Counted from the stretch's first letter, positions 32,862 through 62,741 are shown. The stretch is 64,000 nucleotides of DNA from Mesotaenium endlicherianum (GCA_009602735.1 WELA01000853.1:15947-79946); one strand, 5' to 3'. The notes: generated from the letters alone by a model not told the origin. Numbers and translations: made by a program.

Positions 32862-32985
32862 CAAGTCAGGTCTTACACATGTGGAGCAAACTAGTCAACA
32901 GTTTCAAGTCAGATGCCACACATGTGAAGAGGACTAGTCAAAGGCGCCAAGTCAGGTGCTACACATGTAAGGTAGACTAGGCAAG
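32862..32985 (+). repeat. Three ~43-bp tandem units in the E1 3' UTR
   Basis: CAAGTCAG.T...ACACATGT....GACTAG.CAA repeated three times. Confidence 0.75.
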
Positions 32986-36500: not shown

Positions 36501-37202
36501 TTCCGGGGAGAACACTTCTTTGTAGTCCTCTAAGACTTCTTGTATCTCCTTGGGAACGGGGCTGCCTTCTTGACTCTCGATGTCTTTCTTGATGTCTTTT
36601 GGCGTGATCAAGGCCAAAAGAAGCTCGTGTCCCTTCCTCACAAGTCTCTTGAGTTGGAGGGCGGACAATAGTATCTCGTGTGCCGGCTTCTGGATGTCTT
36701 GGGTCTGGATATTCTGGATTGCGCGCAAAATACAGATTCTTGAAGTGATGTCATTCTTGATCTTGATAGTACCGGTCCTCCAATCAACTTGGGGGTTGTG
36801 CTTGGTCAACCAAGGCGTCCCTAGGATGACGTCGTACTTGCCCAATTGCATGGGGGAGAACACTACTCTATCCTTGAAGGACTTGATAGAGAGTGCCAAG
36901 GGGTACGTCTTCTTGGAAGGGGTAGTATAGGAGAATCCATCGGGCATCATAATCTCCTCGTCGTGGTCAAGAGTTCGCATAGTAATACCGTGCTTGGTGG
37001 CAAAATCTGCAGCAATGAAGTTGCCTTGAGCTCCGCTATCCACCAAGATGTGGACCTTCTCTCCTCCAAGGTAACCTCTCAAACTCATTGGGGCTGGAAC
37101 GTCGTCTTCAACGGGGGTCTCCACCTCACTTGGCGTGTTGCCTTCTCGTGAAGTGGGTCTTGGGGTGGTAGGCTCCTGGCCTACCGGCGCTGTCCGTTTT
37201 TT
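33594..37202 (-). CDS. pol: E1 Pol (PR-RT-RNaseH-IN-chromodomain), translated by -1 frameshift from gag
   Basis: [28 protein letters not shown] zinc finger, [26 protein letters not shown]...YLIKWKGY...NSW. Confidence 0.96.
37167..37202 (-). promoter_or_regulatory. E1 -1 ribosomal frameshift signal
   Basis: Slippery A AAA AAC (37202-37196) in the gag frame, followed 10 nt later by hairpin GGTAGGC-CAGGA-GCCTACC. The -1 frame is the pol ORF. Confidence 0.8.
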
Positions 37203-38461
37203 GACAACTTTTTGGGGCATGAAAGTGCACGATGGCCCTTTTCCTTGCAATAAAAGCATAGTCCAGCCGTCATGAGAGCTTCTTTTTCAGCCGGGGAGAG
37301 TCTTGCTTTCACTCCTTGCTGGTTTCTTGCATCATAAGTGTCATTGGAGGGTCTTCCACTCTTCCGGGCAGCCGCGGGGTCCCTTTTAATAACTCCGATT
37401 TCCATGGGTGTGGGTCCAGATTCGGATGTGGAAGGGGCTGCGTACACCCGCGTCGTCGGTACCCGTGAAGATGAAGGCACGGAGTGCTTGAAATCCAAGG
37501 TATCCACCTTTTGGGCCACTTCAATGATCTTTGAGAAGTCCGTCAAGTCGCGTAACTCCACTTCCTTTGCCACCTTGGGTTTGAGGCCAAAGATGTAGCG
37601 GTCAATCTTCTCCTCGAGAGACATGTTGGGGATCTCAAGAGTGAGGGCGTGAAATCTGGATGTATACTCTTGAACGGACGTCGTTTGCTTGAGATGGTGG
37701 AGCTTTCCTCGGGCAATCTTCTCCGCATTGATGGGCATGAATTGCTTCTTGAGGGCCTCACGAAAATCTGCCCATCTTGCATATGATGGTGGGGGCTCTT
37801 GGCCGAGCATGGGGTGCGCCATAGCTTGATATATAGCCGCTTGATAGTTACGCCACCATGATGTTGCTGCTCCTCTAAGTAAGGTAACGGCAAAGGGAAC
37901 GTAGTCCTCCTCGGGTACTTCAAGGAATGCGAGGTACGTCTCCACTTGGTAGAGCCATAAATTCAGGTTGGCACCTTTCCCGGGGTTGAAAGTGTCGGGT
38001 TTGCCGGGCTTGATGAGTTTCCTTGCTCTCGTTGGCTCTTGTGGAGGCGCTTGAGCCGGGGCTGGATTTTGAGCATTGCTCGCAATAGGGGCAACCATGG
38101 CAGCCATAGCTTCTCTTGACGCTTGCACGGTTGCTTCATAGGTGGCCAAGCCCACTTGGTTGTGGACGGTCATTAGGAAGGCTGCCCACTCATTTGCGGG
38201 AACTCCTTGTGGTGGGGTCAACTTTGCTATAGCGGCTGCCACGGGATTTGACGGTGCTCCTCCTTGTGGTGCTTCTTGTTGTTGGAGATTTCCTTGAGTA
38301 GGCTCTCCCATCGACGCTGGAGGAGGGTGTGCTCCTCCTTGTGGTGCTTCTTGTTGTTGCAGATTTTCTTGAGTGGGCTCTCCCATCGGCGCTGGAGGAG
38401 GGTGTCTTGGAGAGGAAGGGCTTCCTTCGAAAGCTTGCTGTTGGTCTTGAGGATCGGCCAT
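37181..38461 (-). CDS. gag: E1 Gag
   Basis: Retrotransposon gag core ([19 protein letters not shown]) and [14 protein letters not shown] knuckle. A 25-aa N-terminal tandem duplication lies at ~38253-38402. Confidence 0.95.
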
Positions 38462-40117
38462 CTTCTTGTGCTACCAAAGTGCCTAGCTCCGATACCACTG
38501 TAGTGAAACAGATAGATAAAGTACTTAGTAAAACAGAATACTTTATCTATTCAAGACAAGGATCTTTGAACACAAGTGGTAGCTTCTTGAAAGAGAGATG
38601 GCTTCTTGAAAGTTAATATATTTCTGGATTTTGGCAAGTACAAGAGTGATTCTGGAATGTCTTTCTATGTTCTAGCTCTTGTTTATATACTTGCTACATA
38701 AGTAATTTCTAGGAAGGTGTATGTTGATGTGTTGGCACCCAACACATCCCAAAACTTGCCACCTCTTTCTAGAATAATGTACACATGTCCTTTTGACCTA
38801 AAAATGGCACATTTGACTTTTGCCACATGGAGTTCTTCTAGGTCTTTCCTCTAACTTCGAAAATGCCTTGGAAGGTTCAAAGGACATGAACCAAGTTACT
38901 AGAGTACCTATTCACACTTGACTCCACACAAAACTACTCCAAATATATTCGAAAACATTAAAATATATGCAAACTAATATATAATAACTCAAATCACTAC
39001 ATAAGTGGTAGTAGCGAAATGCCAAGCAATGCATTTAAGTGTGATTTAAGGCCAAATAACGCCTTAGGCAAATGATACTTCGGGTTGATGGGAGATGGCT
39101 ATGGGTTTGGTTAGCCGAGGTCCTACAAACATGGTTGACCCCCAACTTACTTATAAGCAACTTAACAATTAATAAAAGATCTTCATATCATCAAGTAATA
39201 TTTATGGTGTTTTCCGATCAACTTATTAATCAGCAAACGAGGGCACAACCAACGTAAGCAATACGCACAAGTCAACGAGCATTAATGAAATGAATCGACT
39301 TACCAAATAGGCGATTAACAATTAATAAAGATCTTTATATCAGCAAGTAATCTTTATGGTATTTCCGTTAACTCGTTAAACGGCAAAGGACAATACACTA
39401 GCAGGGAATACTACTCGTCAGTCAAATGAGAGTAAACTAGCATCAATAATGCAAATCAGTAAACTCATACATAAGCAAGGTTAGAAGACAGTGCGTATCA
39501 ATGGCTTCTCGCCTTGGATTCAGATCTCTCTCAGTAAGCTGTACAAGAGAGTTGGCCTCGTTTCCGAATGCCGAACTCGAGAGCAATGCCTAGCATATGT
39601 ACATGGAATGAGTTTACTGTTCAACGGTCAGTGCGATGGCACCGCCTACCCGGGAGTTAACCACGTTGGTAGGACCTCGGTTAACCAAATCCACCGCCAT
39701 CTCCCATCATCCCGAATAGCCATCCATCATGGGGATGTCATCTGGCCATTCATCTAGCAGGTGGTACTTAGATGCATATCAAGGCAGTTCGCTGCTACCG
39801 AGCACGGAAGTCAGCTGGCTGTCAAAGAATGTGTCAGCAAGCTGACTTAAGTTGACTTCAGCCTGCTGCTTTCGGCTGAGTCATTAAACTGATAATTATG
39901 TAAAGTCCAGCAGACTGACTATTAACTAAAGTTCAGCAGGCTGAACTTAATTAACTATTATATTTAAATGAATATTATATCCACTAATATACTGATTCAT
40001 TACAATCCCTCCAACTTAACTTGTTGTCGCCTCGACAACATTAAACTGCAGAAATTTTAAATAAGGGAACTGAACCTGACCAGCCTCCCTTACTGACTGC
40101 CTCTTCAGCGTGTCACC

Positions 40118-41794
40118 TTAAGGGGTTGTTCCTGGGGCTTCAGGATCAGGAGACGGAGATCTGGACCTAGATCTGGACAGCCCTCTAGGTCTGTCAGCTG
40201 GCCTTCTAAAGAACCCTGTTTGCTCTAAAGTTGGCCCTCGAGGAGAACGGAGGATGGTGGCCTGCTCTTCAACCACTTGGGTGTTGATTCCCACATAGAC
40301 AGGCATTCCAGTAGGATGCTGAAATACATTGGCTAGAGGTACATGCCCCTGAGCGGAGGGGGAGGCTGGCATACCTCTGGCCCACCCGCGTGTCCCTCTT
40401 CTGGCACCCCTGTCCTCTGGGGATTTCTGTCTGTGTCTGCTGCCCAGTACAGTCAGATCAGCTTCTTCCCCTGCTTGGGCAGGTGGGCTGGGGGAGCGAG
40501 CGCGGGGTCCAGTTGTCGCCATAACGGGGATCACATTCCACACACCTGATCGTGGTTCTTTAGGAAGTGCCACTGCCTGTCCCTGGGTATCCTGAGTACC
40601 TGCTGCTGATGCTTCTCCTCTGCCTTGTTCTTCTTCCTCATCCTCCTCATCCTCCTCCTCGGAGAGAGTAGGGGTCTCGTCCACTAAGTCGTCCTGCTCC
40701 CTAGTAGACATGGAGTAGTCTACCGACCTCCCTTTCTTAGGGCGCGCTGGAGGTTGCTTGGCCTTCAGCCTACTGATATCTATCCGGCCTGCATTCTTTG
40801 CCCATTTGACAAAGGCATGCTTTCCCTTAGAGAAGTACTCTCTTCCCCTCCTCCTATGTTCCTTGGTCTCTGCATTCATATTGCTCAGGCATCCATTCAG
40901 CCTGGGGTCCCAAGGGGCAATGTGAGGTGGTAGGATGAGATAGCCGTCTAGGCCATAGTGGAAGTCATCCGGTTGGGCTCGGTCACACTCCTGCTTCTTA
41001 TTTGTGACGGTCATCCACCTCCAGTCTGTTGGCTGCTGGTAGTACTGGGGTCCGTGCTCAGCCTTCCTCAGTTTACACGGGAACCAGTGGGGAGAGAACA
41101 TCTGCTGTCCTGCTTCCCTGGCCAAGTACTCCCAGCTCCTTCTCTCAACTTCATTGTAAGCTGGCAGGAGTGTGAGGTAGAATACCGTATCCTTAAAGCT
41201 ATCGGGCCGCATGCTCACCATCCGGATGAGTCTCTGATCTCCCACTATTCCCGGTATGGGGACCGGCTTGTCCTCTGAATCATCTGCGAGATACCGGGCC
41301 TGCTCTGCTGTATAGCCCACCATCTTAGCATAATCTTCGTAAAGGACCACGCCGGTGTGTGTCTCGATGTACCTGTCCAGTGCTGTAGCTCCTTCCTTCT
41401 GTAGCAGTGTTGTCTGTTCCAGCCTGTTGATCTCCTGGGCTGCCAGCAATGCTTCCTTCAGGTTATCGAAGTTTTGGCCACCCACCACAGTATACCTGTA
41501 AGTGGCCAAGCTCTTCTGTCTGTCCGCTTCAATCTTTTTTCTTTTCTCCTCTTCTGCCGCTGCCGCTTCTTCTTGCTGTTTCTTCTGTCTCTCCTCCTCA
41601 GCCTTCCTGAGGTTTTCCGCTTCCTGATCCTTCTTCCTCTGTGCCTCTTCTGCCGCCTCTTGTTGTTTGCGGACCCTTTCTTGTTCTCTCCTGGTGAGGG
41701 ACGTCGCCGCCAGCTCCTTCTGGTATTGCTCCATTGTCCTCCTGGCTTCTTCTGCCTTGCGCTTTCTGTCCTCCTTTTGTGTGGTGGGCGCCAT
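40118..41794 (-). CDS. E2 ORF3: accessory protein of unknown function (~558 aa from ATG 41794)
   Basis: Intact ORF inside the element in sense orientation. N-terminal E/K/Q/R coiled coil, central aromatic-rich globular domain, acidic and SR-rich tail. Homologous to the E3 ORF3 remnants. Confidence 0.88.
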   Translation of the reverse strand: MAPTTQKEDRKRKAEEARRTMEQYQKELAATSLTRREQERVRKQQEAAEEAQRKKDQEAENLRKAEEERQKKQQEEAAAAEEEKRKKIEADRQKSLATYRYTVVGGQNFDNLKEALLAAQEINRLEQTTLLQKEGATALDRYIETHTGVVLYEDYAKMVGYTAEQARYLADDSEDKPVPIPGIVGDQRLIRMVSMRPDSFKDTVFYLTLLPAYNEVERRSWEYLAREAGQQMFSPHWFPCKLRKAEHGPQYYQQPTDWRWMTVTNKKQECDRAQPDDFHYGLDGYLILPPHIAPWDPRLNGCLSNMNAETKEHRRRGREYFSKGKHAFVKWAKNAGRIDISRLKAKQPPARPKKGRSVDYSMSTREQDDLVDETPTLSEEEDEEDEEEEQGRGEASAAGTQDTQGQAVALPKEPRSGVWNVIPVMATTGPRARSPSPPAQAGEEADLTVLGSRHRQKSPEDRGARRGTRGWARGMPASPSAQGHVPLANVFQHPTGMPVYVGINTQVVEEQATILRSPRGPTLEQTGFFRRPADRPRGLSRSRSRSPSPDPEAPGTTP

Positions 41795-42061
41795 CCTGCA
41801 CATGTAACCAGGGCACAAGTTAGTAGGATATGGACCTTTGTCATAGGGATTGCAGGAAGTATGTTAGTATTTAGTATAGTGGCTTCGCTGCTGTTTACCT
41901 TACAGGATGATTGCTAAAAGTTGACGTAGTTGCGATGCGCTACACATAAACGTATGAGTGTGTTTTTATCGCTCTCGCTCACTAACTGTCATATATTTTC
42001 CCCTCCAACTTAAATGGAGACAGGACCGCCTGTCACCTTCCCGTGTCAACTGAAATGACAG

Positions 42062-45000
42062 TTATGGAGGGACTCCAGCGGCCCGAAGGTGGAACCGTGT
42101 CAACGCCCCTTTGGCATTGGTCAAGTGGTCCTTAAACTCCCAAGTGTCCCCAGAGGCATCGTAACCCTTCCATCGAATGAGGTATTTCATGACATATTTA
42201 GACGATCGACGGACCGAGCGAGCGTCTAAAATCTCATCGACCTCATATTCCTCAGGGTCGCCGTCCCGGACAGCGGGGACCGGTCCCGGTTGGACAGGGA
42301 ACCGACCTGTGAACAGTGTATCACCTTTGATGTACGGTTCCAGGAAGGAGACATTAAAGACCGGGTGCCCCTTGTATTCAGCTGACATGTTCAGTTTGTA
42401 AGCATTCTGACCGACACGACGGACCACCGAATATGGACCGACCCAGACAGGGCCAAGCTTTTTCTTGACCACACCAGGGAGGTACAGGTGCTGAGAATGC
42501 AGTTTGACTAAATCCCCCTTGGAAAATGTCAGTTCCCGACGGTGTTGATTAGCGTATTTTTGTTGGTTTTCTTGGGCCGTGTGCAAGTTTCGTTGGACTT
42601 CTGACAGGGTGTCAGCAAACTCCTGAGTTAACTGGAGGGAGACCGGGTTGTCAATCCCTTCAGGGTGAGTTAAAGATTCCCCTAGCACATCTAGAGGAGA
42701 CTTAGGGACTCTACCCAGGCTGAGTTCAAAAGGAGTTTTGCCCGTTGACGCGTGCACCGCACTGTTGACCGCAAACTGAATTTGAGGCAACAGGTCATCC
42801 CAATTATCTTGTTTTTGGTTAATATATGCTCTCAGCACCTCCTGCAGAACTCGGTTAGTTCTTTCAGTCTGCCCATCAGTCTGAGGGTGGTTTGCTGTGC
42901 TGAGCAGCTGTTTGACTCCCATTAACCCCATTAAAGCTCTCCAGAACTTAGAGGTGAATTTTGAGTCTCTGTCTGAGATGATATTAGAAGGGAGCCCATG
43001 TTGGCATACTACATGGTTGTAAAACTGTCTCGCTGTTTCGAGTGCAGTCACTTTGACAGTTGTGGGGATAAAAATGACCATTTTTGTCAGTTTATCCACG
43101 ACTACCAGTATTGAATCATGCCCGTTGGCAGTTCTTGGTAGTGAGACCACCCAGTCCATGGATATAGTTTCCCAGCGTCCCGCTGGGATGGGTAGCGGTT
43201 GCAAGAGACCTCCGGGTGGTGTGTGCCGAGACTTATTTCTCTGACACTGGTCACAGGACTTGACATATTTCAAGACCTCCCGGGGTAACCCCTCCCAATG
43301 ATAATGTTTTGCCAGTTTGCCAACAGTTTTGGCCTGCCCCAAATGTCCACCCAGGAGACTGTCATGAGCTTGACTCAGTAAGAGAGACCTTATTTCCAAG
43401 TTATTAGGAATGACCAGCTTCAGCCTGCCTGAAGTGGTTTCAGTCACCCAGACCCCTCCCTTGAGCTTATACCCGAGTGCAGTAGCACGACACACACCAG
43501 TAGTGGGGCTGGGCTCAAATGTTGGGTCAGAAAGGTAGGCTTTCCTAAGTTGTTCAAGGAAGGACTTTTTCACCTTTAGTGAAGTGAGTGCACACAGGAC
43601 TTTATCTACAGCATGCTGACTAAAGTTCCTTTCTTGCAAGTCAGGTCTTCTAGAGAGTGCATCAGCAGGATTCAACTTCCCTGGTTTGTAGTCGATCTGG
43701 ACTTGGAACTGCTCCAGCATCTGGCTCCAGCGGTTCTCCCTCCTCGACAGCTTGGACTTCTTCTGAAAGTGGGTCAGAGCTAGATGATCTGTAATCACCT
43801 TAAAAGCTTTACCATGTAAGTATGCTCTCCACTGTTTGAGTACATGAATGATAGCTAGCAGCTCTTTATCATGCACTGAGTAATTAATCTCCGCTGGATT
43901 AAATTTCATAGACTCATACAACACAGGATGCCACTCCTGCCGTACCTTACCATCCTTTGTGGTTTTGTCAGCAGGCTGCAACAAAATAGCACCCATGGCA
44001 AAATCAGAGGCATCAGTAACCACCTGCACCGGTTTGCTGGGGTCATACACGGCTAGCACTGGGGCAGAACAAAGGGCATCTTTAAGGGTCTGGAAGGCAG
44101 CCTGCTGCTCTTCCCCCCACACATACCCGATGTCTTTCTTAGTAAGGTCAGTCAGTTTACTGGCCTTTGTGGAATAATTCTCAATAAATCTCCTATAGTA
44201 GTTAGCCAACCCGAGGAAGGATCTAACTTCAGAGACAGACTGTGGTACTGGCCAGTCCCTTATGGTCTGGACTTTCTTAGGATCCACACTGATGCCCTCT
44301 TTACTGACAACGTGGCCTAAGAATTCAATACTTTCCTTAAAGAAATCACACTTGCTCATTTTAGCATACAAGTGATTTTTCCGCAGAGTGTCCAGCACTT
44401 TCTTTAAGTGTTCAGTGTGCTGAGCTTCATCTTTAGAGAAAATTAAAATATCATCCAGGAAAACTTGCACAAACTTATCCAAATAAGGTCTGAAAATGTC
44501 ATTCATAGCACCCATAAAGGTAGCAGGAGCATTAGTCAGTCCAAATGGCATCACGTTGAACTCATAGTGTCCATAACGTGTGCGGAAAGCAGTCTTGTGT
44601 TCATCCCCCTCAGCAATTCTGATTTGATGATAACCACTCTTGAGATCTATCTTACTGAACACCTTAGCGCCAGACAGGGTATCAAGCAAGTCCTCGATTC
44701 TGGGTAAAGCATACTTGTTCTTTACTGTAATTCTGTTCAGGGCTCTGTAATCCACACACATCCGCATACTGCCATCCTTTTTCTTAACAAATAGGATAGG
44801 TGCGCCGTACGGTGATTTACTGGGAGAAATGTAACCATTTTCCTCCAGCTCTGCAATCTGTGTTTTCAACTCCTCGCTCTCCAAATAAGACAAGCCATAA
44901 GTGCGTTGCCAGGGTGGCTGGCTACCAGGTAATAGATCAATCCTATGATCTACTTCCCTTTTAGGGGGTAGTCCTGGAGGCATGTTAAACACATCAGTGT

Positions 45001-45871
45001 ACTGAGCAACAATTTTTGCAGCAGTAGGGTGCTCCGGAGGGCTTACCTTTTTCTCAACCACTTCTTCAGGTTGAGGAGGTACCTCTCTTAGCAGCAGACA
45101 GAACATTCTGTCTTCCTTCTGGTTCCAGCTTTTGACGAACTCCATTGCATTCAGCAACTTGCATCCTTCTGGAAGCCTCTTCTTTTCCTTCATTTGCCAT
45201 CCACACAGGACAAGAGGAAGAGCACTGGTGGGTGCCAAGTCAGTCTGCCCATCACTGGCTCCTCTCACTTTAACTGTACCTCTGCTCCAACACACTTCAG
45301 CTTGATGTCTATTAAGCCAGGACCTGCCTAGCACGAGATCATAAAAGCCAGTGTTGAGTACCTCAAATGTAAGCGTTTCAGTTAGAACTGCAATGCCAGA
45401 ACCTAACTGGACCTCAATAGGCTTGGTTATAACTCCTCCCGGGATACTTGAGGCATCTCCAAGGAATATTTTTCTATTCCCTTGGGTGACAGTAGGCAGC
45501 CTTAGCCGCTTAACTAAGTCCTTGTGGATAAAAGTATGTGACGCCCCTCCGTCAACAAATGCCCTCACCTTCCTACCTGCAATCATGCAATGCAGTAGGA
45601 TAGGGGGGACTGTCTTTTCCTGACTTTCGCATTGTTCTCCTGACGTAGCAAAGAAATGTTGGACATCAGGTGGAACAAGAGCATCCAGAGTGTGCACTCT
45701 CTGGACGTCTATATTACTGATGGTCTCCTTTATCTGTTTGTCAGGCATGCATAGTGAATCCAGTTCAGCAGGACCCATAATACCTGCTACGAGGGCAGCT
45801 AGTGACGACTCACTATCTCTAGCATCCTCACAGTCAGTAGACTGGATTACTGACTGTTGCTGTCTTTTAAA
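42062..45871 (-). CDS. pol: E2 Pol (PR-RT-RH-IN-chromodomain), via -1 frameshift
   Basis: [54 protein letters not shown]...YLIRWKGY...DTW. The frame is open up to the slippery site. Confidence 0.96.
45830..45871 (-). promoter_or_regulatory. E2 -1 frameshift signal
   Basis: T TTA AAA (45871-45865), a 7-nt spacer, then a perfect 10-bp stem ACAGTCAGTA/TACTGACTGT (45857-45830). The -1 frame reads [10 protein letters not shown]...GIMGPAEL into pol. Confidence 0.85.
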
Positions 45872-47325
45872 GGCTGGTCTTTTCTCTCGACCTTAGGCAG
45901 GTGCTTGACCGGACACTGTTCTCTGTAGTGGCCTTTCTGCTGACAATGGTAGCAAGTAGATTTTGCTGAGGCTGGTCTCGGCTTAGTCCTACCACCACCC
46001 CTTCCATAGCCACCTCGAGAGGGACCACCTCTACCTCTAGACTGAATAGCATTGTACTCATACTCATATTCATCACCCTGATTATCCTCAGCCTGGTCTC
46101 CTTCAACTGCATTGTAGGAACCGTGGGGCTTTTTGACAATCTTAGACACCAAAGCGTTACTCTGGCGCTTGTGATTGAACTGCTGCTGATCCCAGGCGTC
46201 AGCATCCTGGATCAAGTCAGCCAGTTTCTCATACTTTTTCTCAGCAAAATGACCAGAGACCTCGGATTTCAAGCCATACCTGAAGTATGCTATCCTATAC
46301 CGTTCTGGCAAATCAGGCTGCTTCATCATGTTCTCTTGGAACTTTTGAGCAAACTCAGCAACTGAAGTGGTCTGCTTCAGTGTCAGGGAGATCATCGCAT
46401 AGATAGCTTTCTCCTGCTGGTTGATGACATCAAACTTCTCATGCAACTTCTCGACAAACTCTACCCACGTAGGGTCACCGAGTTGCCGAGCCTTACGCTC
46501 TTCCTTCCAGTAAAGCCACCAGTCTGCGGCACTGCCTTTCAGTAGCGCACCGGTGTGCCTGACCTTCTCGTAATCTTGCAGTTCTGGGTAGTTCTCCAGC
46601 CACTGCTCAACATCCGCGAGAAACTTGATCAGGTAATATTTTCTGTTTCCCTCAGGATCATAGTCCTGGGGAGGTTTCGGCTTGGGCTTACTAGGCCCTC
46701 GGCCACCACCACTAGTGGTGTGAGACCCCAGTTGGTCTCTGTCCCGGAGTAGGGACATTATGATTCTTTTGTCCTCCTGCTGGGACTGATACATGGTCGC
46801 CATTTGCGACTGCATCTGAACGAACAATGCTCCCAAGTCTACATTTTGGGGTGGTAGATTAGCAAATGCAGCAGCAGCATTGGCATCTACTCGCTGAGTA
46901 GTGTCCTCAACAATCCCTCTTGCTCCTGCAGCAGCAATTCCTGCCGCATTCAGCCGGTCACGTATTTGACCTAGGGGTACATTGAGTTGTACGGCAGGAG
47001 GTGGGTTCAGAACATTGGCCCTTGATGCCATAAGTTCTTCAACAGTGCGCTCGTCAGCTGGCTGTCCTTCCCTCCTTTGTATATCTTCAGCGGCCTTTGC
47101 TACTTGTTCAGCTTCTAGTCTGGCTATCTCCTCCTCAGCTTGCTGAGCTGCGACTGAGGCAATAGCAGCTGCCTCATCTGCAGCCTCCCTAGCTGCAGTA
47201 TCCGCTACTGCTTCCGAATAGGTACGGTTTCCCGCTACATGGCTTTCCGCCTGGTTTTCGACATTCTCGTTATCCTGGTTCTCCATGTCTCGGGAGTTGC
47301 TAGTTTGAGACCTTGTCCTTACCAT
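45847..47325 (-). CDS. gag: E2 Gag
   Basis: MVRTRSQ start, [23 protein letters not shown]-rich stretch and [14 protein letters not shown] knuckle. Confidence 0.95.
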
Positions 47326-48104
47326 ACAAAGAAGACTGTGATAACTGCTCCGATACCACTGAAATGAATCGACTTACCAAATAGGCGATTAACAATTAAT
47401 AAAGATCTTTATATCAGCAAGTAATCTTTATGGTATTTCCGTTAACTAGTTAAACGGCAAAGGACAATACACTAGCAGGGAATAATACTCGTAAGTCAAA
47501 TGCGAGTAAACTAGCATCAATAATGCAAATCAGTAAACTCATACATAAGCAAGGTTAGAAGACAGTGCGTATCAATGGCTTCTCGCCTTGGATTCAGATC
47601 TCTCTCAGTAAGCTGTACAAGAGAGTTGGCCTCGTTTCCGAATGCCGAACTCGAGAGCAATGCCTAGCATATGTACATGGAATGAGTTTACTGTTCAACG
47701 GTCAGTGCGATGGCACCGCCTACCCGGGAGTTAACCACGTTGGTAGGACCTCGGTTAACCAAATCCACCGCCATCTCCCATCATCCCGAATAGCCATCCA
47801 TCATGGGGATGTCATCTGGCCATTCCTCTAGCAGGTGGTACTTAGATGCATATCAAGGCAGTTCGCTGCTACCGAGCACGGAAGTCAGCTGGCTGTCAAA
47901 GAATGTGTCAGCAAGCTGACTTAAGTTGACTTCAGCCTGCTGCTTTTGGCCGAGTCATTAAACTGATAATTATGTAAAGTCCAGCAGACTGATTATTAAC
48001 TAAAGTTCAGCAGGCTGACTACTAACTAAAGTTCAGCAGGCTGAACTAAATTAACTATTATATTTAAATGAATATTATATCTACTAATATACTGATTCAT
48101 TACA

Positions 48105-49008
48105 ATTAATCATACAATCAATAAACTCATACATAAACAAGGTTAGTAAGTAGTTCGTGCAACGGCTTGCAGACTTATATTCAAATATTGTCTCAATAGT
48201 ATGTACAAAGAGTTGGCCTTCTTTTCGAATACCAAATTCCGTATTAATACCTAGCATATGTACATGGAAAGAGTTATACTGTTCATCGGGTAGTGCGATG
48301 GCACTGCCTACCTGGGAGTTAACTACGTCGGCAAGACCATGGCTAACCAAGTCCACAGCCATCTCCCATTATTCCAAATTGCCATCCGCCTAAGGCGTCA
48401 TTAGGCCATTCATCTAGCATATTACACTTAGATGCATCATTAGACGGTTCGCTAGTATCGCTTGAAAGTTGAGGTGATCAGCTGAGTGTCAAAGAATGCG
48501 TCAGCAAGCAGATCTAAGTTGACTTCAGCTAACTGTCTTTAGCAGAGTCATCACACTAAATAAAAGTTTAAGTCCAGCAGACTGAGTATTAACCGAAGTT
48601 TAGCAAATTGGACTTAATTAAGTACTGCATTTAATTGAATCATTATATCTAACAATTTACAAATAAATTACAGGAAGTAATGCTCACAAGTCAAATGCTA
48701 GTAGGGAGCATCATTCATGCAATCACTATACTCATTCATACAAGAGGCTAATAAACTATTCTTGTAACGGCTTGCAGCCTTGGATTTTGATATTCCCTCA
48801 GCAGTTTGTACAGAGAGTTGGCCTTGTTTTTAAACGCCAAACACAATAGCAATCTTAGCATATGTACATGGAAAGAGTTCTACTGTTCAACGGCAATTAC
48901 GATGGCACCGTTTGGAGTTAATAAGGTTGGTAAGACCTTGGCTAATCAAATTTACAGCCATCTCCCATCATCTCAAATCGCCATCCGCCTAAGGCATCAT
49001 CTGGCCTA
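48105..49008 (-). repeat. Decayed E2-family LTR remnants (one continues from ~39145-39285 across the E2 insertion; a second partial copy follows at ~48673-49008)
   Basis: Collinear similarity to the E2 LTR (AGCATATGTACATGGAA, GCCATCTCCCAT, TGTCAAAGAATG). Confidence 0.8.
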
Positions 49009-52908: not shown

Positions 52909-53710
52909 TGAAATGAATCGACTTACTAAAAAGCGATTAATAATTAATGAAGATCTTTATATCAGCAAGTAATCTTCATGGTATTTTCTGTAGATTGATT
53001 AAACAGCAAAAGACAACACACTAGCAATGGACAATACTCGTAAGTCAAATGGAAGTAAACTAGCATCAATAATGCAATCGGTAAACTCACACATAAGGAA
53101 GGCTAGGAGACAGTGCATATCAATGGCTTCTCGCCTTGGATTCAGATCTCTCTCAGTAAGCTGTACAAAAGAGTTGGCCTCGTTTCCGAATGCCGAACTC
53201 GAGGGCAATACCTAACATATGTACATGGAATGAGTTTACTGTTCAACGGCCAGTGCGATGGCACCGCCTACCCGGGAGTTAACCACGTTGGTAGGACCTC
53301 GGTTAACCAAATCCACCGCCATCTCCCATCATCCCGAATCGCCATCCATCCTAAGGATGTCATCTGGCCATTCATCTAGCACACCACACTTAGATGCATA
53401 TTTAGGCAGTCGCTGCTACCGAGTACGAAAGTCAGCTGGCTGTCAAAGAATGTGTCAGCAAGCTGACCTAAGTTGACTTCAGCCTGCTGCCCCCGGCTGA
53501 GTCGTTTAACTGATTGTTTTATAAAATCCAGCATACTCAATATTAACTAAAGTTTAGCAGGCTGAACTTATTTAACCATCATATTTAAATGAATATTATA
53601 TCAACCAATGTACTAATTCATTACGATCCCTCCAACTTAACACGTTGTCGCCTCGACTACACTAACACTAATAACAGCGTGCTGTCCCTTCCGTCCCCAG
53701 CCTATTGCTA

Positions 53711-55877
53711 TTAGGAGGGAGATGTCCCTGGGGCCCTATACTCAGGGGAGCCAGACTTCCTCCTGTCTTAGAATCTCCTGAAGCCTGGGGGATCCGCGTA
53801 GGGGCCCAGCGGAGAACGCAGTAACTGGACTGTTTCCTCCTGCACAGTCTGAAACTGAAGGGAGGTAGCCTTCTCCTGGGCAGCCCTCAAATTGACAGGT
53901 ACATATACCGGCAACCCAGAAGGATGTTGCATGACATGAGCCAAGGGCACATGCCCTCTCTGCAAGGGAGATGCTGGCAGGCCTCTGGCTATCTCACGAG
54001 CAGCTGTAGTGATTTAAGTTATTTTATATATTAATTTGCATATATTTTAATATTTTCAAATATATTTGGAGTACTATTGTGTGGATTCAAGTGTGAATAG
54101 GTACTCTAGTGACTTGGTTCATGTCCTTTGAACCTTCTAAGGCATTTTCGAAGTTAGAGGAAAGACCTAGAAGAACTCCACGTGGCAAAAGTCAAATTCG
54201 TCATTTTTAGGTCAAAATGACATGTGTACATTATTCTAGAAAGAGGTGGCAAGTTCTGGGATGTGTTGGGTGCCAACACATCAACATACACCTTCCTACA
54301 AATTACTTATGTAGCAAGTATATAAACAAGAGCTAGAACATAGAAAGACATTCGAGAATCACTCTTGTACTTGCCACAATCCAGAAATATATTAACTTTC
54401 AAGAAGCCATCTCTCTTTCAAGAAGCTACCACTTGTGTTCAAAGATCCTTGTCTTGAATAGATAAAGTATTCTATTTTACTAAGTACTTTATCTATCTGT
54501 TTCATTGCAGTAGCCCTCCTGTCTGCCCTGTCTGACTAGGTCTCCGTGCCTGCAGATGGGCTCTGTCCTCTGGCAGTTCCCAACCAAGTGATGTCCTCCT
54601 CTTCAGCGAGCTGTTGCAAGGCCATCTCAGTCTTCTCCCTTACAGGGGATGGGGCAGGTGTCAGGACCACAGCGGGGCTAGTGTCCTCCTCCTCGCCTTC
54701 CTCTTCTTCCTCTGACCGCTCCTCCTCTCCTTCCCCTGGTTCCTCTGAGACCGCTGGGGTTTCCTCTGTCAGCTGCTCTAGCTCTTCCCGAGAAAAAGAG
54801 TACCCCACTGACCTTCCCCTTTTGGGTGCTGGTGGAGGCTGTTAAGTCCGGACCGCATATAGGTCCTTTTCTCCCTGCTTGCTTGCCCATTTGGCATAAG
54901 CATGCTTCCCTTTAGAGAATGACTCACGGGGCCCTGCTCCTGTCCTCCTGCATTTCTTGGCTCATGCAGTCTCTTACTCCATCCCATCTTGGGTCCCAAG
55001 CTGCAATGTGAGGAGGCAACAGTATGTTTCCCTGTAGGTTTGTTAGGCAATCCTCATCCTTTGCCTTGTCATTCTGCTGGTCCCTCGTGTCGATGGTCAT
55101 CCACCGCCAATCGATGGGCTTCTGGAAAAAGGCAGAGTCTGTCCTTTTCAGGGTGCACGGGTACCAGTGCCCTGCGAAGTCCAGCTGACTGGTTTCCCTG
55201 GCCAAGAACTCCCAGCTTCTCCTCTCCACCTCATTATACATGGCCATGAACCGGTTATAGGGTGTAGAGTCCTTGAAGCTGTCCGCGTCCATGGGGATCA
55301 TCCTGATGACCCTATCCTTTCCCCAGATACTTGGGATCGATACAGCTCCTGTCTCATTCATTTGGGCCATTGCCTTGGCCTCTCTGACTGTATACCCTAC
55401 CATCCTGGCATAATCGTGGTAATGGAGTAGCTCTGTGCTGACCTCAATATACATGTCAAAGTAACCTGATGTCTCCCCTTCCCTTTGCACGATGTCCTGC
55501 TGTGCCACACTGCGACTTCTTTGGACATACTTGAAGGCCTCCTCCAGTAGATCAAAGCCCTTGCCCAGTATTGTGTAGCGGTAGCTGCTAATTCTCCTCT
55601 GTTCTTCTTCTTCAGCCTGCTGCTTCCGCCTCTCCTCGGCTTGCCTCTCCTCTTCCGCCTTCTTGGCCTCCTCTGCAGCTTTTCAGTCCAGTTCTTCTTG
55701 CCTGAGCCTGGCTTGCTCCTCCTCCTCCTTCTTCTTCTATGCCTCCCGCTGTTGTTGGAGTCGTTGTGATTCTCGAACGGAGATGGAGGAAGATTCGATG
55801 TCGCCACGGAATTGCAAGTAACCTGCATGTGCCTCTTCCGCTCTTCCCTTCCTCTTAAGTTTCGACTTCTGGGTCAT
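53711..55877 (-). pseudogene. E3 ORF3 (frameshifted, interrupted by a solo LTR)
   Basis: Fragments YNEVERRSWEFLARE, DWRWMT, LPPHIAAWDPR, PKRGRSVGYS and GHVPLAHVMQHPSGLPVYV match E2 ORF3. Confidence 0.88.
54005..54509 (+). mobile_element. Solo LTR of the E1 family
   Basis: Reverse complement of the E1 LTR, TG..CA ends, TSD GCAGC/GTAGC. Confidence 0.93.
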
Positions 55878-56235
55878 CCTGCTCAATCGTAAACTTAATG
55901 CAGTCAGTGGAGTCATGATACTTTGCCGCTACTAAGTGTCCGTAGTTAAGAAGAACGTGATAGGGAGAGTCCTTAATGTGTAGTACCTTGTGTAAGTGAG
56001 TATAAGAGAGAATTGAGTTAGAGAGAAAAAGTGAGTATGAGCGCAGGTTGAGTGTGTAGAGTGGTTATAAAAATTTCCCTGGCTGATCCCGAAACGGAAC
56101 ACACTCCCTCCAACTTAATTGTAAGGTGGGCTGTTTGTCAAGACTGTCACTATCTATCACTAATCGTCACATTGCCCTCCGACTTATATGGAGACAGGAC
56201 CTCCTGTCACCTGTCCATGGCCACTGAAATGACAG

Positions 56236-59200
56236 TAAGGGAGGGGCGCCAGCCGCCCGAAGGTAGAACCGTTTTAACGCCCCTTTGGCATTGGTCAGCT
56301 GGTCTTCAAATTCCCAAGTGTCTCCAGAGGCGTTGTAACCCTTCCATCTGACCAGGTACTTCATGACATGTTTAGATGAGCGACGGACAGAGCGAGCGTC
56401 TAAAATCTCCTCGACCTCATATTCCTCAGGGTCACCATCCCGGACAGCGGGGACCGGTCCGGGTTGGACAGGTAACCGACCTGTGAACAGTGCGTCACCT
56501 TTGATGTATGGTTCCAGGAAGGAGACATTAAAGACCGGGTGGCCCTTATATTTTGCTGACATGTTCAGTTTGTAAGCATTTTGATTGACACGGCGCACCA
56601 CCGAATATGGACCGACCCAGACAGGACCATGCTTTTTCTTGACCACACCAGGTAGGTACAGGTGCTGAGAATGCAGTTTGACCAAATCGCCCTTAGTAAA
56701 TATCAGTTCACGACGGTGCTGATTAGCGTATTTTTGTTGGTTTTCCTGGGCTTTCTGCAGGTTCTGTTGGACTTCTGACAGGGTGTCAGCAAACTCCTGT
56801 GTTAACTGGAGGGAGACCGGATTGTCAATCCCTTCAAGGTGAGTTAAAGACTCCCCCAATACATCTAAAGGAGACTTAGGGACTCTACCCAAACCGAGTT
56901 CAAAAGGAGTCTTGCTCGTTGACGCGTGCACCGCACTGTTGACCGCAAACTGGATTTGAGGTAACAAATCATCCCAATCATCTTGTTTTTGGTTAATATA
57001 GGCTCTCAGTACCTCTTGCAGAACTCGGTTAGTTCTTTCAGTCTGCCCATCAGTCTAAGGGTGGTTTGCTGTGCTGAGCAGCTGCCTGACTCCCATTAAC
57101 CCCATTAAAGCTCTCCAGAACTTAGAGGTAAACTTTGAGTCTTTGTCTGAGATGATATTAGAGGGTAGTCCATGTTGGCATACTACATGGTTGTAGAACT
57201 GTCTCGCTGTTTTGAGTGCAGTTACTTTGACAGTTGTGGGGATATAAATGACCATTGTTGTCAGTTTATCCACGACTATCAGTATGGAATCATGCCCAGT
57301 GGCAGTTCTTGGTAGTGTTACCACCCAGTCCATGGATATTTTCCCAGTGGCCAACTGGGATGGGCAGCGGTTGTAAGAGGCCCCCCGGTGGTGTGCTTAG
57401 ACTTATTCCTTTGGCACTGGTCACAGGACTTAACATATTTCAAGACCTCCCGAGGTAATCCCTCCCAATGATAATGTTTTGCCACTTTGCCAACGGTCTT
57501 GGCCTGCCCCAAATGCCCACCCAATAAACTGTCATGGGTTTGACTCAGTAAAAGAGACCTTATTTCCAAGTTATTAGGAATGACTAGCTTCAGCCTGCCT
57601 AAAGTGGTTTCAGTCACCCAGACCCCACCCTTAAGTCTATACCCGAGTGCAGTAGCAGGACACACACCGTCAGTGGGGCTGGGCTCAAATGTTGTATTAG
57701 AAAGGTAGGGTTTCCTAAGTTGTTCAAGGAAGGACTTTTTCACCTTTAGTGAAGTCAGTGCACAAAGGTCTTTCTCTACAGCATGCTGACTAAAGTTCCT
57801 TTCTTGCAAGTCAGGTCTTCAAAAGAGTGCATAAGCAGGGTTCAACTTCCCTGGTTTATAGCCAATCTGGACTTGAAACTGCTCCAGCATCTGGCTCCAG
57901 CGGTTCTCCCTCCTCGACAGCTTGGACTTCTTCTGAAAGTGAGTAAGAGCTGAATGATCTGTAATCACCTTCAACGCTTTACCATATAAGTATGCTCTCC
58001 ACTGTTAGAGCACATGAATGATTGCTAGCAGCTCTTTATCATGCACTGAGTGATTAATCTCAGCTGGATTAAATTTCATATACTCATACAACACAGGATG
58101 CCACTCCTGCTTTACCTTACCATCCTTTATGGTTTTGTCAACAGGCTGCAACAAAATAGCACACATGGCAAAGTCATAGGCATCAGTAACCACCTGCACA
58201 GTTTTGCTGGGGTCATACACGGCTAGCACTGGGGCAGAACAAAGAGCATCTTTAAGGGTCTGGAAGGCACCCCGCTGCTCTTCCCCCCACACATACCCTA
58301 TGTCTTTCTTGGTAAGGGCAGTCAGTTTACTGGCCGTTGTTGAATAATTCTCAATAAAATCTCATATAGTAGTATGCCAACCCAAGGAAGGATCTAACTT
58401 CGGAGACGGATTGTGGTATAGGCCAGTCCCTTATGGTCTGGACCTCCTTAGGATCCACACTGATGCCCTCTTTGCTGACAACATGGCCATGGATTTCAAT
58501 ACTTTCTTTGAAGAAATCACACTTGCTCATTTTAGCATACAACTGGTTCCTTCTCAGAGTGTCCATGACTGTCTTTAAGTGTTCAGCATGCTGAGCTTCA
58601 TCCTTAGAGAAAATTAAAATATCATCCAAGAAGACTTGCACAAATTTGTCCAGGTAAGGTCTGAAAATGTCATTCATAGCACCCATGAAGGTTGCAGGAG
58701 CATTGGTCAGTCCGAATGGCATCACGTTGACCTCATAGTGTCCATAACGTGTGCGAAAGGCAGTCTTGTGTTCATCCCCCTCAGCAATTCTGATTTGATG
58801 ATAATCACTCTTGAGATCTATCTTACTGAACACTATAGCACCAGACAGGGTATCAAGCAAGTCCACGATTTTGGGTAAAGCATACTTGTTCTTTACTGTT
58901 ATTCTGTTAAAGGCTCTGTAATCAACACACATCCGCGTACTCCCATCCTTTTTCTTAACAAAGAGAATGGGTGCGCCATAAGGTGATTTACTGAAAGAAA
59001 TGTAACCATTTTCCTCAAGCTCTGCAATCTGTGTTTTCAAGTCTTTGCTCTCCACATAAGACAAGCCATAAGTGGGTTGCCAGGGTGGCTGACTCCCAGG
59101 TAATAAGTCAATCTTGTGATCCACTTCCCTCTTAGGAGGTAGTCCTGGAGGCATATTGAAAACATCAGCGTACTGAGCAACAATTTTTGCAGCAGTAGGG

Positions 59201-60036
59201 TGCTCCGGAGGGCTTACCTTGTTCTCAACCACTTCTTCAGGTTGAGGAGGTACCTCTCTTAGCAGCAGACAGAACATTCTGTCTTCCCTTTGGTTCCAGC
59301 TGTCGATGAACTCCATTGCATTCAGCAATTTGCATCCTCCTAGAAGCCTCTTCTTTTCCTTCATTTGCCATCCACACAGGACAAGAGGAAGAGCACTGGT
59401 GGGTGCCAAGTCAGTCTGCCCATCACTGGCTCCTCTCACTTTAACTGTACCTCTGCTCCAACACACTTCAGCTTGATGTCTATTAAGCCAGGACCTGCCT
59501 AGCACAAGATCATAGAAGCCAGTGTTGAGTACCTCAAATGTAAGCGTTTCAGTTAGAACTGTAATGCCAGAACCTAACTGGACCTCAATAGGCTTGGTTA
59601 TAATTCCTCCCGAGATACTTGAGGCATCTCCAAGGAATACTTTTCTATTTCCTTGGGTGACAGTAGGCAGCCTTAGCCGCTTAACTAAGTCCTTATGGAT
59701 GAAAGTATGTGACGCCCCTCTGTCAACAAATGCCCTCACCTTCCTACCTGCAATCATGCAATGCAGTAGGATAGGGGGGACTGTCTTTTCCTGACTTTCG
59801 CATTGTTCTCCTGACGTAGCAAAGAAATGTTGGACATCAGGTGGAACAAGATCATCCAAAGTGTGCACTCTTTAGAGATCTATATTGCTGATAGGTCTCC
59901 TTTATCTGGTTGTCAGGCATGAATAGTAAATCCAGTTCAGCAGGACCCATCATACCTGCTACGAGGGCAGCTAGTGACGACTCACTATCTCTAGCATCCT
60001 CACAGTCAGTAGACTAGATTACTGACTGTTGCTGTC
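56236..60036 (-). pseudogene. pol: E3 pol pseudogene
   Basis: ORF fragments 58351-59868, 58005-58292, 57318-57809, 57055-57354 and 56167-56967 are collinear with and highly similar to E2 Pol. Confidence 0.93.
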
Positions 60037-60042
60037 TTTTAA

Positions 60043-60740
60043 CACTAGGTATCCCATTGGACCATATATGGTCTAGCTAACCCCCATTTTTCAGCGCTGA
60101 CCTCCAGGGTGCTACAGTTGACCAACTGGTACAAATTTTGGCTCAAACGAACCGTACAGATTTGAACCTTAGGCGAAAAAATGCAAAATGGTCTTCCGAT
60201 TATTAACGACAAAGTTAGAGTGAAAAGAAGGAGGTTCAAAGTTCAGGTTCACAACAAAATTTCAAGTGAAAAGTCTGTCATACCCGAGGTCACTAAAGAG
60301 CTCTTAGAGCCATGACTTCTTCAAATGCGCCAAAAATAGTTGTGGGTGGTAAATTACTCATCCTTGCCACCTTCTGGGGAGATGCATGGGCGAAAAAGAC
60401 ATTTGGACAATATTACATAGAGTTTTTCTTAGTCGAAATTGTGAGAAAGGAGATTGTGAGGACTAAAAAGGAAAACTCATGGCTCATAGAAGTGTTGTAT
60501 GACAAAGAAAAGAAGCAATGGGAGGCATGGCAGGTCAGGCAGTACCTATCTACAGTGCCCGAAGAGTCTTGGTTTTATTTCGAGCCGCATGTAGTTCGTT
60601 TTGGCTTGGTTTCCTCAAGGGCCTCTTTGCTTTCAAATTCGAGAGAGAATGAGGGTCACAGTCTAATTTCGTCCTCCCAAGATCCAAATGATGACTCACA
60701 GCCAAGGTCTAGTGATGGTGAGGAGGATAAGGAGGATGAG

Positions 60741-60772
<32 letters not shown>

Positions 60773-61780
60773 GGATATTATGAGGAAGAGGGGCAGGCCT
60801 GACACCGGAAGAGGTAAGCAGCTGATGCTCATTGTTCCTACTGTTAAAAATGAGAAAAAGAAGAGGAGGAGAAGGGCAACTGCTCCATAACCATAATTTC
60901 TCCTTAACCATAACTTCTCCAAACATTGTGGTGCACTACAAAACACACAAAGACGCTGTTGATCAATTTTACAAGCTCTGTGTGAGGGATAAGTTCTTTG
61001 TCGAGACTTCTGCTGTGAGCTTAAAGTGGTGGCACAAACTATATTGGGGTCTATTTGATGCTGCCCTGGCCGATGCCTACATCCTCTACAACCTGGCCCA
61101 TCCTGAGAGTGACAGGTATCCCTTCATGTTAGATGTTGTAGCGGAGATGACAGACTTCCCTGATCCACATGAGGGGAGGCGCTTTCGCTGGAGTGCGGGG
61201 CGGGCTGGGATTGACAGGTTCCTAGGGAGACACTTCCCTAAGCACCTTCCAGGAGGCTCTAGACCAGGATGTCTAGTGTGCAAGAGCAAGTTGTATGACC
61301 TAGGCCATGAGAAGAGTAAGGTGAGGCCTAGCTATTGGTGCGCAACGTGTGGAGTAGCGCTTTGCCCCGCGCCTTGCTTTGAGGAGTACCATACCAACAG
61401 GCACATAGCACATGTAGATAGTGGCCCCTACAAGCTGAGTAGCAGTAAGAAGTAGGATTGTAGAGCAGAAGAACTGCAACTGAAACATATATGAAAGACT
61501 TTGTGCTCCATAAACAATTCAGCTTCATGTGTGCAAAGCTGTCGATTCTGCAATATTTTGCAACTAATAATTCATTTTTAATCATTTTAATTCATTATTT
61601 TGTATATAAATATTTATTTGTAAGTAAAGTAAGACCTTACTTTCAAGCTCCACTTTACAGATTACTATTTGCATGTGCAAAGAATAAATTATGAATTATC
61701 AACTGTGATGCTTTGGTGCATGAGGCACTAAAAAGTACGAAAAATACCCGGACCCCATATGGTCCACTAAGTACAGAGTG
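60043..61780 (+). mobile_element. Internally deleted piggyBac-superfamily DNA transposon
   Basis: Begins right after TTAA (60039-60042) with CACTAGGTATCCCATTGGACCATATATGGTC. Imperfect inverted end GACCCCATATGGTCCACTAAGTACAGAGTG at 61751-61780. The right TTAA is missing. Confidence 0.82.
60312..61455 (+). pseudogene. piggyBac transposase remnant: N-terminal acidic region (60312-60890) and C-terminal part with Cys-rich domain (~60915-61455); most of the DDD core is deleted
   Basis: PNIVVHY....AVDQ...KWWHKLYWGLFDAALADAYILY and HFP...CLVC...YWCATCGVALCPAPCFEEYH, typical of the PGBD C-terminus. Confidence 0.85.
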
Positions 61781-61867
61781 TGCCTCCACAAAGCTACTGA
61801 TTAGAATGAAGTGAAATTTGTTTCATATGATAGGTAAGACACATGCCTACCCCAAATTAAATCAACA

Positions 61868-61989
61868 ACTACTGCTTCCAAATAGGTACGGGTTCCCGCT
61901 ACATGGCTTTCAGCCTGATTTTTGACATTTTCGTTATCGTGGTTCTCCATGTCTCGGGAGTTGCTAGTTTGAGACATTGTCCTTACCAT
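61868..61989 (-). pseudogene. gag: 5' stub of E3 gag (rest deleted)
   Basis: [40 protein letters not shown] matches the E2 Gag N-terminus. Confidence 0.88.
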
Positions 61990-62741
61990 ACAAAGAAGAC
62001 TGTGATAACTGCTCCGATACCACTGAAATGTTTCGACTTACTAAAAAGGCAATTAATAATTAATGAGGATCTTTATATCGGCAAGGAATCTTTATGGTAT
62101 TTTCTGTTGATTGATTAAACGGCAAAAGACAACACACTAGCAGTGGAGAATACTCCGAAGTCAAATGGAAGTAAACTAGCATCAATAATGCAATCAGTAA
62201 ACTCACACATATGCAAGGCTAGGAGACAGTGCATATCAATGGCTTCTCGCCTTGGATTCAGATCTCTCTCAGTAAGCTGTACAAGATAGTTGGCCTTGTT
62301 TCCGAATGCCCAACTCGAGAGCAATACCTAGCATATGTACATGGAATGAGTTTACTGTTCAACGGCCAGTGCGATGGCACCGCCTACCTGGGAGTTAACC
62401 ACGTTGGTAGGACCTCGGTTAACCAAATCCACCGCCATGTTCTATCATCCCGAATCGCCATCCATCCTAAGGATGTCATCTGGCCATTCATCTAGCACAC
62501 CACACTTAGATGCATATTTAGGCAGTCGCTGCTACCGAGTACGAAAGTCAGCTGGCTGTCAAAGAATGTGTCAGCAAGCTGACCTAAGTTGACTTCAGCC
62601 TGCTGCCCCCGGCTGAGTCGTTTAACTGATTGTTTTATAAAATCCAGCAGACTCAATATTAACTATAGTTCAGCAGGCTGAACTTATTTAAGTATTATAT
62701 TTAAATGAATATTATATCAACCAATATACTGATTCATTACA

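Follow-up and report, generated by a model that had tools for sequence, protein, structure and literature searches.

In the sections of the REXdb survey that deal with additional genes, extra ORFs were reported for 3372 Ty3 elements and fell into 314 sequence groups (PMC6317226). Supplement 5 of the survey covers 782 Tekay chromoviruses, 18% of which have sense ORFs after pol, and it tabulates none for Chlamyvir (44), Tcn1 (1500), Reina, CRM and Galadriel; no winged-helix domain is listed in supplement 4 (PMC6317226). Sense and antisense aORFs form a recognised class, the function of which is called an open question in the cited part of PMC7264820. 5′ aORFs with an NLS were described for Tekay in a section of PMC11728184, and separate spliced messages for such ORFs are typical for these elements according to a passage of PMC5408684.

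Several better characterised genes can be compared with the gene considered here, ORF3 of the chromovirus E2. Grande gene23 and Retand TRP28 are extra genes located between pol and the LTR, with their own promoter and a nuclear or predicted DNA-binding product, but they are antisense, belong to the non-chromovirus Tat lineage and carry a Transposase_28 domain unmatched in ORF3 (PMC7264820 and PMC11963269, sections on these genes). CERV of the C. elegans element Cer1, as portrayed in the cited part of PMC10309623, is a nuclear non-env orphan that a Ty3-type element expresses through a spliced mRNA and that has S/T-P sites; ORF3 may be likened to it, although domains and host differ. By analogy, ORF3 also recalls Tas/Bel1 of foamy viruses, a 3′-end accessory gene with its own promoter that encodes a DNA-binding activator of the LTR, in viruses with a second PPT; however, foamy viruses are mammalian retroviruses, and Tas has no sequence link to ORF3 (PMC3185757, passages on Tas). 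VANC of VANDAL is encoded by the element, is diversifying and is proposed to act on repeated motifs of its own element (PMC5735166, cited part). In contrast to ORF3, it belongs to a DNA transposon, and its divergence is matched by that of its target, while the two alleles studied here accompany one LTR array; no homology between VANC and ORF3 was detected.

We analysed one stretch of DNA from Mesotaenium endlicherianum (GCA_009602735.1 WELA01000853.1:15947-79946; 64,000 nucleotides, hereafter the window), which includes E2, an older and broken copy of the same family (E3) and a member of a second chromovirus family (E1) (Table 1). The LTRs of E2 have TG...CA termini, are flanked by a 5-bp TSD (TTAAT) and share 98.5% identity over 720 columns; given this identity and the TSD, E2 is a young and complete element. 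Based on Pfam annotation, gag is followed by PR-RT-RH-INT and a C-terminal chromodomain, and this order, together with the LTR termini, 5-bp TSD, PBS and PPT, is that of a Ty3 chromovirus. The PBS is presumably of the initiator-tRNA-Met type. Gag and pol overlap at T TTA AAA, a candidate slippery site, pol occupying the -1 frame. ORF3 is the third sense ORF, located 3′ of both. The pol stop is followed by 50 nt, an upstream copy of the PPT, a further 207 nt and ORF3, the end of which is 100 nt from the 3′ PPT. The upstream PPT stands at the point where a plain chromovirus would end.

Table 1. Features of the three elements and of ORF3, with positions counted from the first letter of the window.
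Feature	Position	Strand	Remarks
E2, complete Ty3 chromovirus	39286..48104	minus	TSD and LTR identity
E2 5′ LTR	48104-47360	minus	
TCAGC-NN-GCTGA palindrome array, 5′ part of E2 LTR	47885..48044	minus	~24-nt spacing
Donor-like G/GTAAGT near 5′ LTR end	47372..47377	minus	possible alternative donor for ORF3 mRNA
E2 PBS, TGGTATCGGAGC	47340..47358	minus	
E2 gag (capsid, zinc knuckle)	45847..47325	minus	Pfam and frame reading
E2 pol: protease, RT, RNase H, integrase, SH3, chromodomain	42062..45892	minus	Pfam
E2 upstream PPT copy (TAAGTTGGAGGG)	42001..42012	minus	left border of divergent cassette
Predicted 5′UTR intron, E2, 103 nt	41796..41898	minus	AAG/GTAAAC donor, CTAAC branch at -29, TGCAG/G ATG acceptor
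E2 ORF3, 558 aa, intact	40118..41794	minus	
Charged single alpha-helix, ORF3 residues 8-95	41510..41773	minus	
Tentative excisionase/Cox-type winged helix-turn-helix, residues about 143-203	41186..41368	minus	lead only
Conserved aromatic-rich domain, residues about 204-345	40760..41185	minus	
Basic NLS-like motif, then acidic tract	40595..40759	minus	
GHVPLA..HP.G.PVYV motif (conserved) and Ser/Pro tail	40121..40348	minus	RS run only in E2
E2 3′ PPT	40007..40018	minus	right border of cassette
E2 3′ LTR	40004-39286	minus	
E3, E2 family, older and broken	52909..62741	minus	TSD CTTAT, LTRs 95% identical
E3 upstream PPT copies, two	56175-56186, 56106-56117	minus	
Predicted intron in E3 matching that of E2	55879-55986	minus	same layout
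E3 ORF3, second deeply diverged allele	53711..55877	minus	
E1, second young chromovirus family, intact, without ORF3	32321-38985		LTRs 99% identical

The surroundings of these elements are rich in repeats. E1 includes 786 nt of non-coding tail. Both E2 and E1 are inserted among clustered older repeats (48116-49006, 39049-39279 and 30272-32311), which occur in both orientations and match portions of the E2 LTR at 70-93% identity; TCAGC-NN-GCTGA palindromes lie in their best-kept block. In E3, a 1.8-kb segment (60042-61869) stands in place of most of gag. It begins at the frameshift-site TTAA, and one of its frames resembles a piggyBac-like zinc finger (zf-Tnp_2, a match below the cut-off at E 5e-4). 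E3 interrupts a decayed gene on the minus strand (62748-63390 and below 52904), which has tyrosine-recombinase-like motifs on both sides and no Pfam match; by its motifs, we take it to be of the DIRS type. At about 7000-15400, on the minus strand, lies what its motifs indicate to be a plant-type receptor-like kinase gene, with a TM segment and kinase motifs; the long introns that divide it are rich in microsatellites and contain N gaps. This gene and the RT-RNase H tree given below are in keeping with a streptophyte green alga as host. Finally, a 1-kb sequence is present twice in inverted orientation (26013-27017 and 50228-51230, 97-99% identity) and encloses E1 and E2.

The chromodomain of E2 has Y, W and Y at the aromatic cage positions given in the cited part of PMC3350952. 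In a quick RT-RNase H tree of 50 rows (48 of the 120 listed relatives, E1 and E2, with no named Chlamyvir or Tcn1 reference among them), E2 grouped with Closterium, Haematococcus, Nannochloris and 26 other rows (SH-aLRT 97) and apart from 7 seed-plant rows (SH-aLRT 100). According to the REXdb section on priming, 83% of Tcn1 elements are self-priming without a tRNA PBS and 5% use tRNA-Met (PMC6317226). E2 has a tRNA-type PBS, which lowers but, given these 5%, does not exclude membership of Tcn1.

The interval of ORF3 is a single open frame of 558 codons on the minus strand, and it includes every motif quoted in the earlier note; the plus strand has no open frame there. The intact sense ORF of about 558 aa between pol and the 3′ LTR, as first described, is thus confirmed as one frame that shares the orientation of gag-pol. 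In 1000 second-order Markov simulations of the cassette, 558 codons were never reached (longest simulated frame, 354), and both family copies within the window (2/2; E2 and E3) contain the gene. Comparison of the two alleles under a pairwise codon model (500 codons) gave an omega of 0.131 (dN 0.48, dS 3.66), with omega = 1 rejected (2dL 140, p about 3e-32), while a counting method gave pN 0.33 against pS 0.70-0.74. Since omega is far below 1, the gene has been selected; the purifying selection proposed earlier stands, and the dN/dS near 1 across copies that had been named as contrary to it was not observed. ORF3 is therefore a real, selected third gene. It should be noted that all allele comparisons rest on two copies, both within the window, and that the selection detected covers the long time during which the two alleles evolved apart and need not reflect the backbone that they now have.

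As a sense frame of at least 250 codons between pol and the 3′ LTR without a tandem repeat, ORF3 corresponds to the eORF-3′F / aORF-3S type, with which it shares position, orientation, a length above 250 codons, orphan status and probable splicing (PMC6317226 and PMC7264820, sections defining these types). In the same sections, none is tabulated for Chlamyvir or Tcn1, the cage-chromodomain clades that E2 resembles. Because extra ORFs in sense orientation had already been recorded for Ty3 elements, among them 18% of Tekay in REXdb, ORF3 belongs to a known class, and the earlier statement that chromoviruses normally encode only Gag-Pol was too strong. What is new within this class is an orphan protein together with a cassette structure that appears undescribed. 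Neither a PPT-bounded swappable ORF3 nor a winged-helix ORF3 of a chromovirus was found in the literature covered (openly readable papers, judged from listings).

The two alleles of ORF3 differ far more than the elements that carry them. Their proteins share 41-46% identity (three tblastn pieces), against 92-93% for pol, and the LTRs are 90% identical. The dS of pol between the same elements is 0.18-0.28; fixing the dS of ORF3 at 0.28 was rejected (2dL 354), as was fixing it at 1.5 (2dL 23), and the silent-site divergence of the 2-kb block is more than ten times that of the adjoining pol. Identity in 100-nt bins is 0.85-0.95 down to position 42000, 0.54-0.76 between 42000 and 40100 (about 60% over the block) and 0.86-0.99 in the LTR; gaps were treated leniently in these bins, so that 0.6 is near the floor. 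Blastn blocks between E2 and E3 stop at 41979 and restart at 40044. It had been suggested that the motifs persist in E3 despite heavy divergence: the motifs are indeed kept, but the divergence is confined to the ORF3 block. E3 ORF3 is interrupted by five stop codons among the aligned codons, by a single frameshift and, at about 54005-54510, by a solo LTR belonging to the E1 family. No trace of ORF3 was found in the neighbouring E1 family element.

The PPT sequence TAAGT(T/C)GGAGGG has five matches in the window, all at cassette borders, where 0.02 are expected, and the cassette of E2 measures 1994 nt from PPT to PPT. The dS of about 3.7 against 0.18-0.28 in pol, and the PPT copies at the borders, point to exchange by recombination; we consider it very probable from these patterns that the cassette, PPT to PPT, was exchanged between related chromovirus families. 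With similarly high probability, the swap would occur by template switching during reverse transcription, with crossovers in the homologous pol end and in the PPT/LTR. The same PPT direct repeats would also delete the cassette cleanly, leaving an ordinary gag-pol-PPT-LTR chromovirus; since such loss would be permitted, the retention of ORF3 in the young E2 suggests a benefit. Local hypermutation of the block was ruled out, as the adjoining non-coding LTRs differ by only 10%. A conserved hairpin before each PPT was also considered but not supported (z below -2 at only one of five family sites). A distance of 69 nt separates the two upstream PPT copies of E3; a TGTG start comes after each of them, and they resemble stacked relics of successive cassette junctions.

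The start of ORF3 carries splice signals in both elements: a CT(A/G)AC branch motif at -29/-30 and GCAG/G immediately 5′ of the ATG in E2 and E3, with an AAG/GTA donor at -104/-109. CAGG directly before an ATG, with a branch motif 18-40 nt upstream, was found at one of 140 ATGs in E2 and one of 127 in E3, and in each element that ATG is the ORF3 start; the nearest ATGs upstream fall within the predicted intron. Since these signals are kept in both copies although silent sites are saturated, a separate spliced mRNA is predicted, with a 103-108-nt 5′UTR intron in a transcript from an internal promoter. It is likely that such a subgenomic mRNA exists, starting at a promoter immediately 3′ of the upstream PPT or using the LTR donor, with the acceptor one base before the ATG. 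A junction of a donor at the gag ATG with the ORF3 acceptor was discarded because the product would be out of frame with ORF3.

The region at residues 8-95, previously taken for a coiled coil, is a charged single alpha-helix: at most 3 of 25 a/d positions are hydrophobic in any register, and it contains 51 i/i+3,4 salt bridges compared with 27 in shuffles. Residues 204-345 are the best-conserved part of the protein (AF2 pLDDT under 50) and include the motifs YNEVERRSWE, HW.PC, DWRWMT, LPPHIA.WDPR and FSKGKHA. Both alleles retain the NLS-like motif (PKKGRSV in E2, PKRGRSV in E3), the acidic tract (17 D/E in residues 361-400) and the GHVPLA motif. As regards the SR-rich tail noted earlier, an RSRSRS run is present in E2, but it falls in a gap of the E3 alignment and is not conserved. 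Of the nuclear or RNA-associated factor proposed earlier, the nuclear part is plausible, while the RNA-associated part rests on the RS tail missing in E3.

No homologue was found in any sequence library searched. Pfam gave no plant mobile domain, Transposase_28, Athila ORF1 or movement protein (E<=0.1; fragments, E<=10), so none of the env, movement-protein or plant-mobile-domain families that might have explained ORF3 was matched. The sub-threshold hits Obc1_C (E 0.001), DUF6462, FAR1 and phrog_63 anti-repressor (E 0.05) were not common to both copies and were discarded, and a Myb/SANT-like W...C spacing at residues 221-241 was rejected, being without Pfam support and missing the third aromatic residue. 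Residues 110-370 searched against a 5.8-billion sequence set yielded no homologue among 3916 candidates, the two-copy alignment gave 0 of 4233 at E<=1, and the full protein had no homologue among 1.84 billion representatives. None of 135 and none of 142 pattern matches in metagenome contigs was a homologue; viral contigs, phage records and PDB sequences contained no homologues, and the best ESM Atlas values (0.82 and 0.78) were at chance level. Because few unannotated TE genes of algae are represented in the sequence sets, which were searched within limited length classes, this absence is weak evidence.

The pattern LYEDYAKMVGYT resembles an excisionase-type helix-turn-helix, which we suspected before any folding. 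The AF2 model of residues 94-210 (pLDDT 55; 37 for residues 90-330) contains a hairpin, two short helices as in a helix-turn-helix, and a wing. A Foldseek search of this model gave nothing significant; its highest-ranking rows belonged to P2 Cox, Xis and MerR-type HTH proteins, all with E >0.6 (0.65 and up). VIA over model positions 54-117 returned mostly winged helices, BldC and Xis among them, with a best Z of 4.8, which the tool rates as commonplace (0 of 48161 rows at Z>=5). In hhalign, ORF3 matched eight Cox proteins with a probability of 56-66% and scores of 29-34; the controls did not exceed 17 (150 column shuffles) and 15 (41 natural gag/pol windows); the alignment covers 33-68 columns at about 21% identity. 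When a Cox HMM was run over 1235 six-frame segments, the two ORF3 copies ranked first and third. It should be noted, however, that Cox was chosen after the fold search and that the pairwise E of about 1e-4 is not significant at database scale. In its tentative model, ORF3 resembles the Xis/Cox/MerR-type proteins (P2 Cox, PDB 4lhf; BldC, 6amk; Xis, 4j2n) in topology, and its sequence has a stretch like theirs, Y-x-[ED]-[FY]-A-[KR]-x-[IV]-G-x-[ST], but the match is below database significance, and fold convergence may explain the likeness. No HTH family of Pfam, PHROGs or NCBIfam matched ORF3. Given this and the post hoc choice of Cox, the winged helix is a lead with roughly even chances; on the model, we lean slightly towards residues 143-203 forming an Xis/Cox-type winged helix. 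The presumed recognition helix differs between the alleles (TAEQARYL and TVREAKAM).

Each LTR of the family contains four or five TCAGC-NN-GCTGA palindromes, mostly about 24 nt apart, a motif chosen after inspecting the LTR; the array is a candidate set of protein-binding sites. No such palindromes were found in the LTR of the ORF3-less E1 (n=1). The candidate site is also missing upstream of ORF3, where no TCAGC-NN-GCTGA was found, unlike in Tas autoregulation. In the E2 5′ LTR, one palindrome unit carries a 26-27-nt tandem duplication (48007-48044) that is lacking in the 3′ LTR.

Based on the above results, we tentatively suggest, at rather less than even chances, that ORF3 is a nuclear DNA-binding regulator that activates or shields (anti-silencing) its own element. 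The spliced subgenomic mRNA would be translated, and the protein would enter the nucleus via the PK(K/R)GRSV motif and bind repeated sites in the element, the LTR palindrome array being the candidate. The acidic tract may then recruit transcription or anti-silencing machinery, and ORF3 would work by analogy with foamy-virus Tas or VANDAL VANC. A point against the regulator is that the E2 and E3 alleles sit with a nearly identical LTR array. The recognition helices differ while the array is nearly common, which is a poor fit to strict recognition of one shared LTR site.

It is less likely that ORF3 acts like CERV or Rev, the protein from the spliced mRNA binding the unspliced genomic RNA and licensing its nuclear export or blocking its splicing. 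Splicing from the LTR donor to the strong acceptor would excise PBS, gag and pol, the problem that CERV solves (PMC10309623, passage on splicing), but the local donor 105 nt upstream can account for the acceptor without splicing of genomic RNA. Residues 306-360 are basic (17 K/R), winged helices can bind RNA (Z-alpha and SelB were among the Foldseek/VIA rows), and a response element inside the cassette would explain its travel as a block. On the other hand, the RS run is missing from E3, and no CERV similarity or export signal was found in ORF3.

We regard it as unlikely that ORF3 is a captured passenger with little role for gag-pol, a gene of an unrelated mobile element or of the host taken up with the PPT and LTR of the donor. 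The upstream PPT at the plain-chromovirus end, followed in E3 by an LTR-start-like TGTGAC, and the intron-like signals of the cassette's own are consistent with capture, and selection could have acted in the donor. However, two silent-saturated alleles in one slot of one backbone require long residence or two captures, the young E2 keeps ORF3 intact although the PPT repeats should ease its deletion, and no gag, transposase or host domain was detected in the protein.

Rather improbable is an antagonist of a host defence protein or small-RNA pathway, in the style of Bet/Vif or a silencing suppressor, with balancing selection preserving its old alleles. An arms race would suit the deep divergence of alleles that share one backbone, and the conserved His/Cys (HW.PC, PPH, KGKH) could bind metal; yet omega is low overall, no target is indicated, and ORF3 has no GW/WG repeats and matches no known suppressor family.

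An integration or chromatin-targeting cofactor steering integrase to repeats of its own kind appears very doubtful. The clustered older repeats among which E2 is inserted are indeed about 75% identical to the LTR of E2 itself, and a DNA-binding fold with a rigid helix could tether a complex. Nevertheless, E3 sits in an unrelated recombinase-like gene, the ORF3-less E1 shares the repeat cluster with E2, and a cage-type chromodomain is already part of pol.

An env-like or movement protein, suggested by position and orientation only, is extremely improbable: the sequence scan found no TM, signal segment, N-glycosylation sequon or furin site and no family was matched, whereas env-like aORFs have a TM; the earlier reading of no TM helix or signal peptide was correct (maximum Kyte-Doolittle 19-mer, 0.73).

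Returning to the suggested regulator of its own element, what extra ORFs do in plant LTR retrotransposons is named as an open question in the cited parts of PMC7264820 and PMC6317226. An intact young copy and a second allele on nearly the same backbone, with predicted junctions, fold and target array, make this function testable by allele swap. The PPT-bounded mosaic offers a mechanism for the REXdb puzzle of wildly differing eORFs within one lineage, which modular exchange may explain. A stronger proposal, to which we give only a minor chance, is that the family carries interchangeable, anciently diverged regulator cassettes, namely self-contained spliced genes between two PPTs for an activator/unsilencer with a phage-excisionase-like winged helix; if true, this would be a ‘complex’ retroelement with a plug-in transactivator, the retrotransposon counterpart of swappable phage immunity modules. 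If ORF3 is a sequence-specific activator or anti-silencer, the logic of VANC and Tas would extend to chromoviruses near the origin of land plants.
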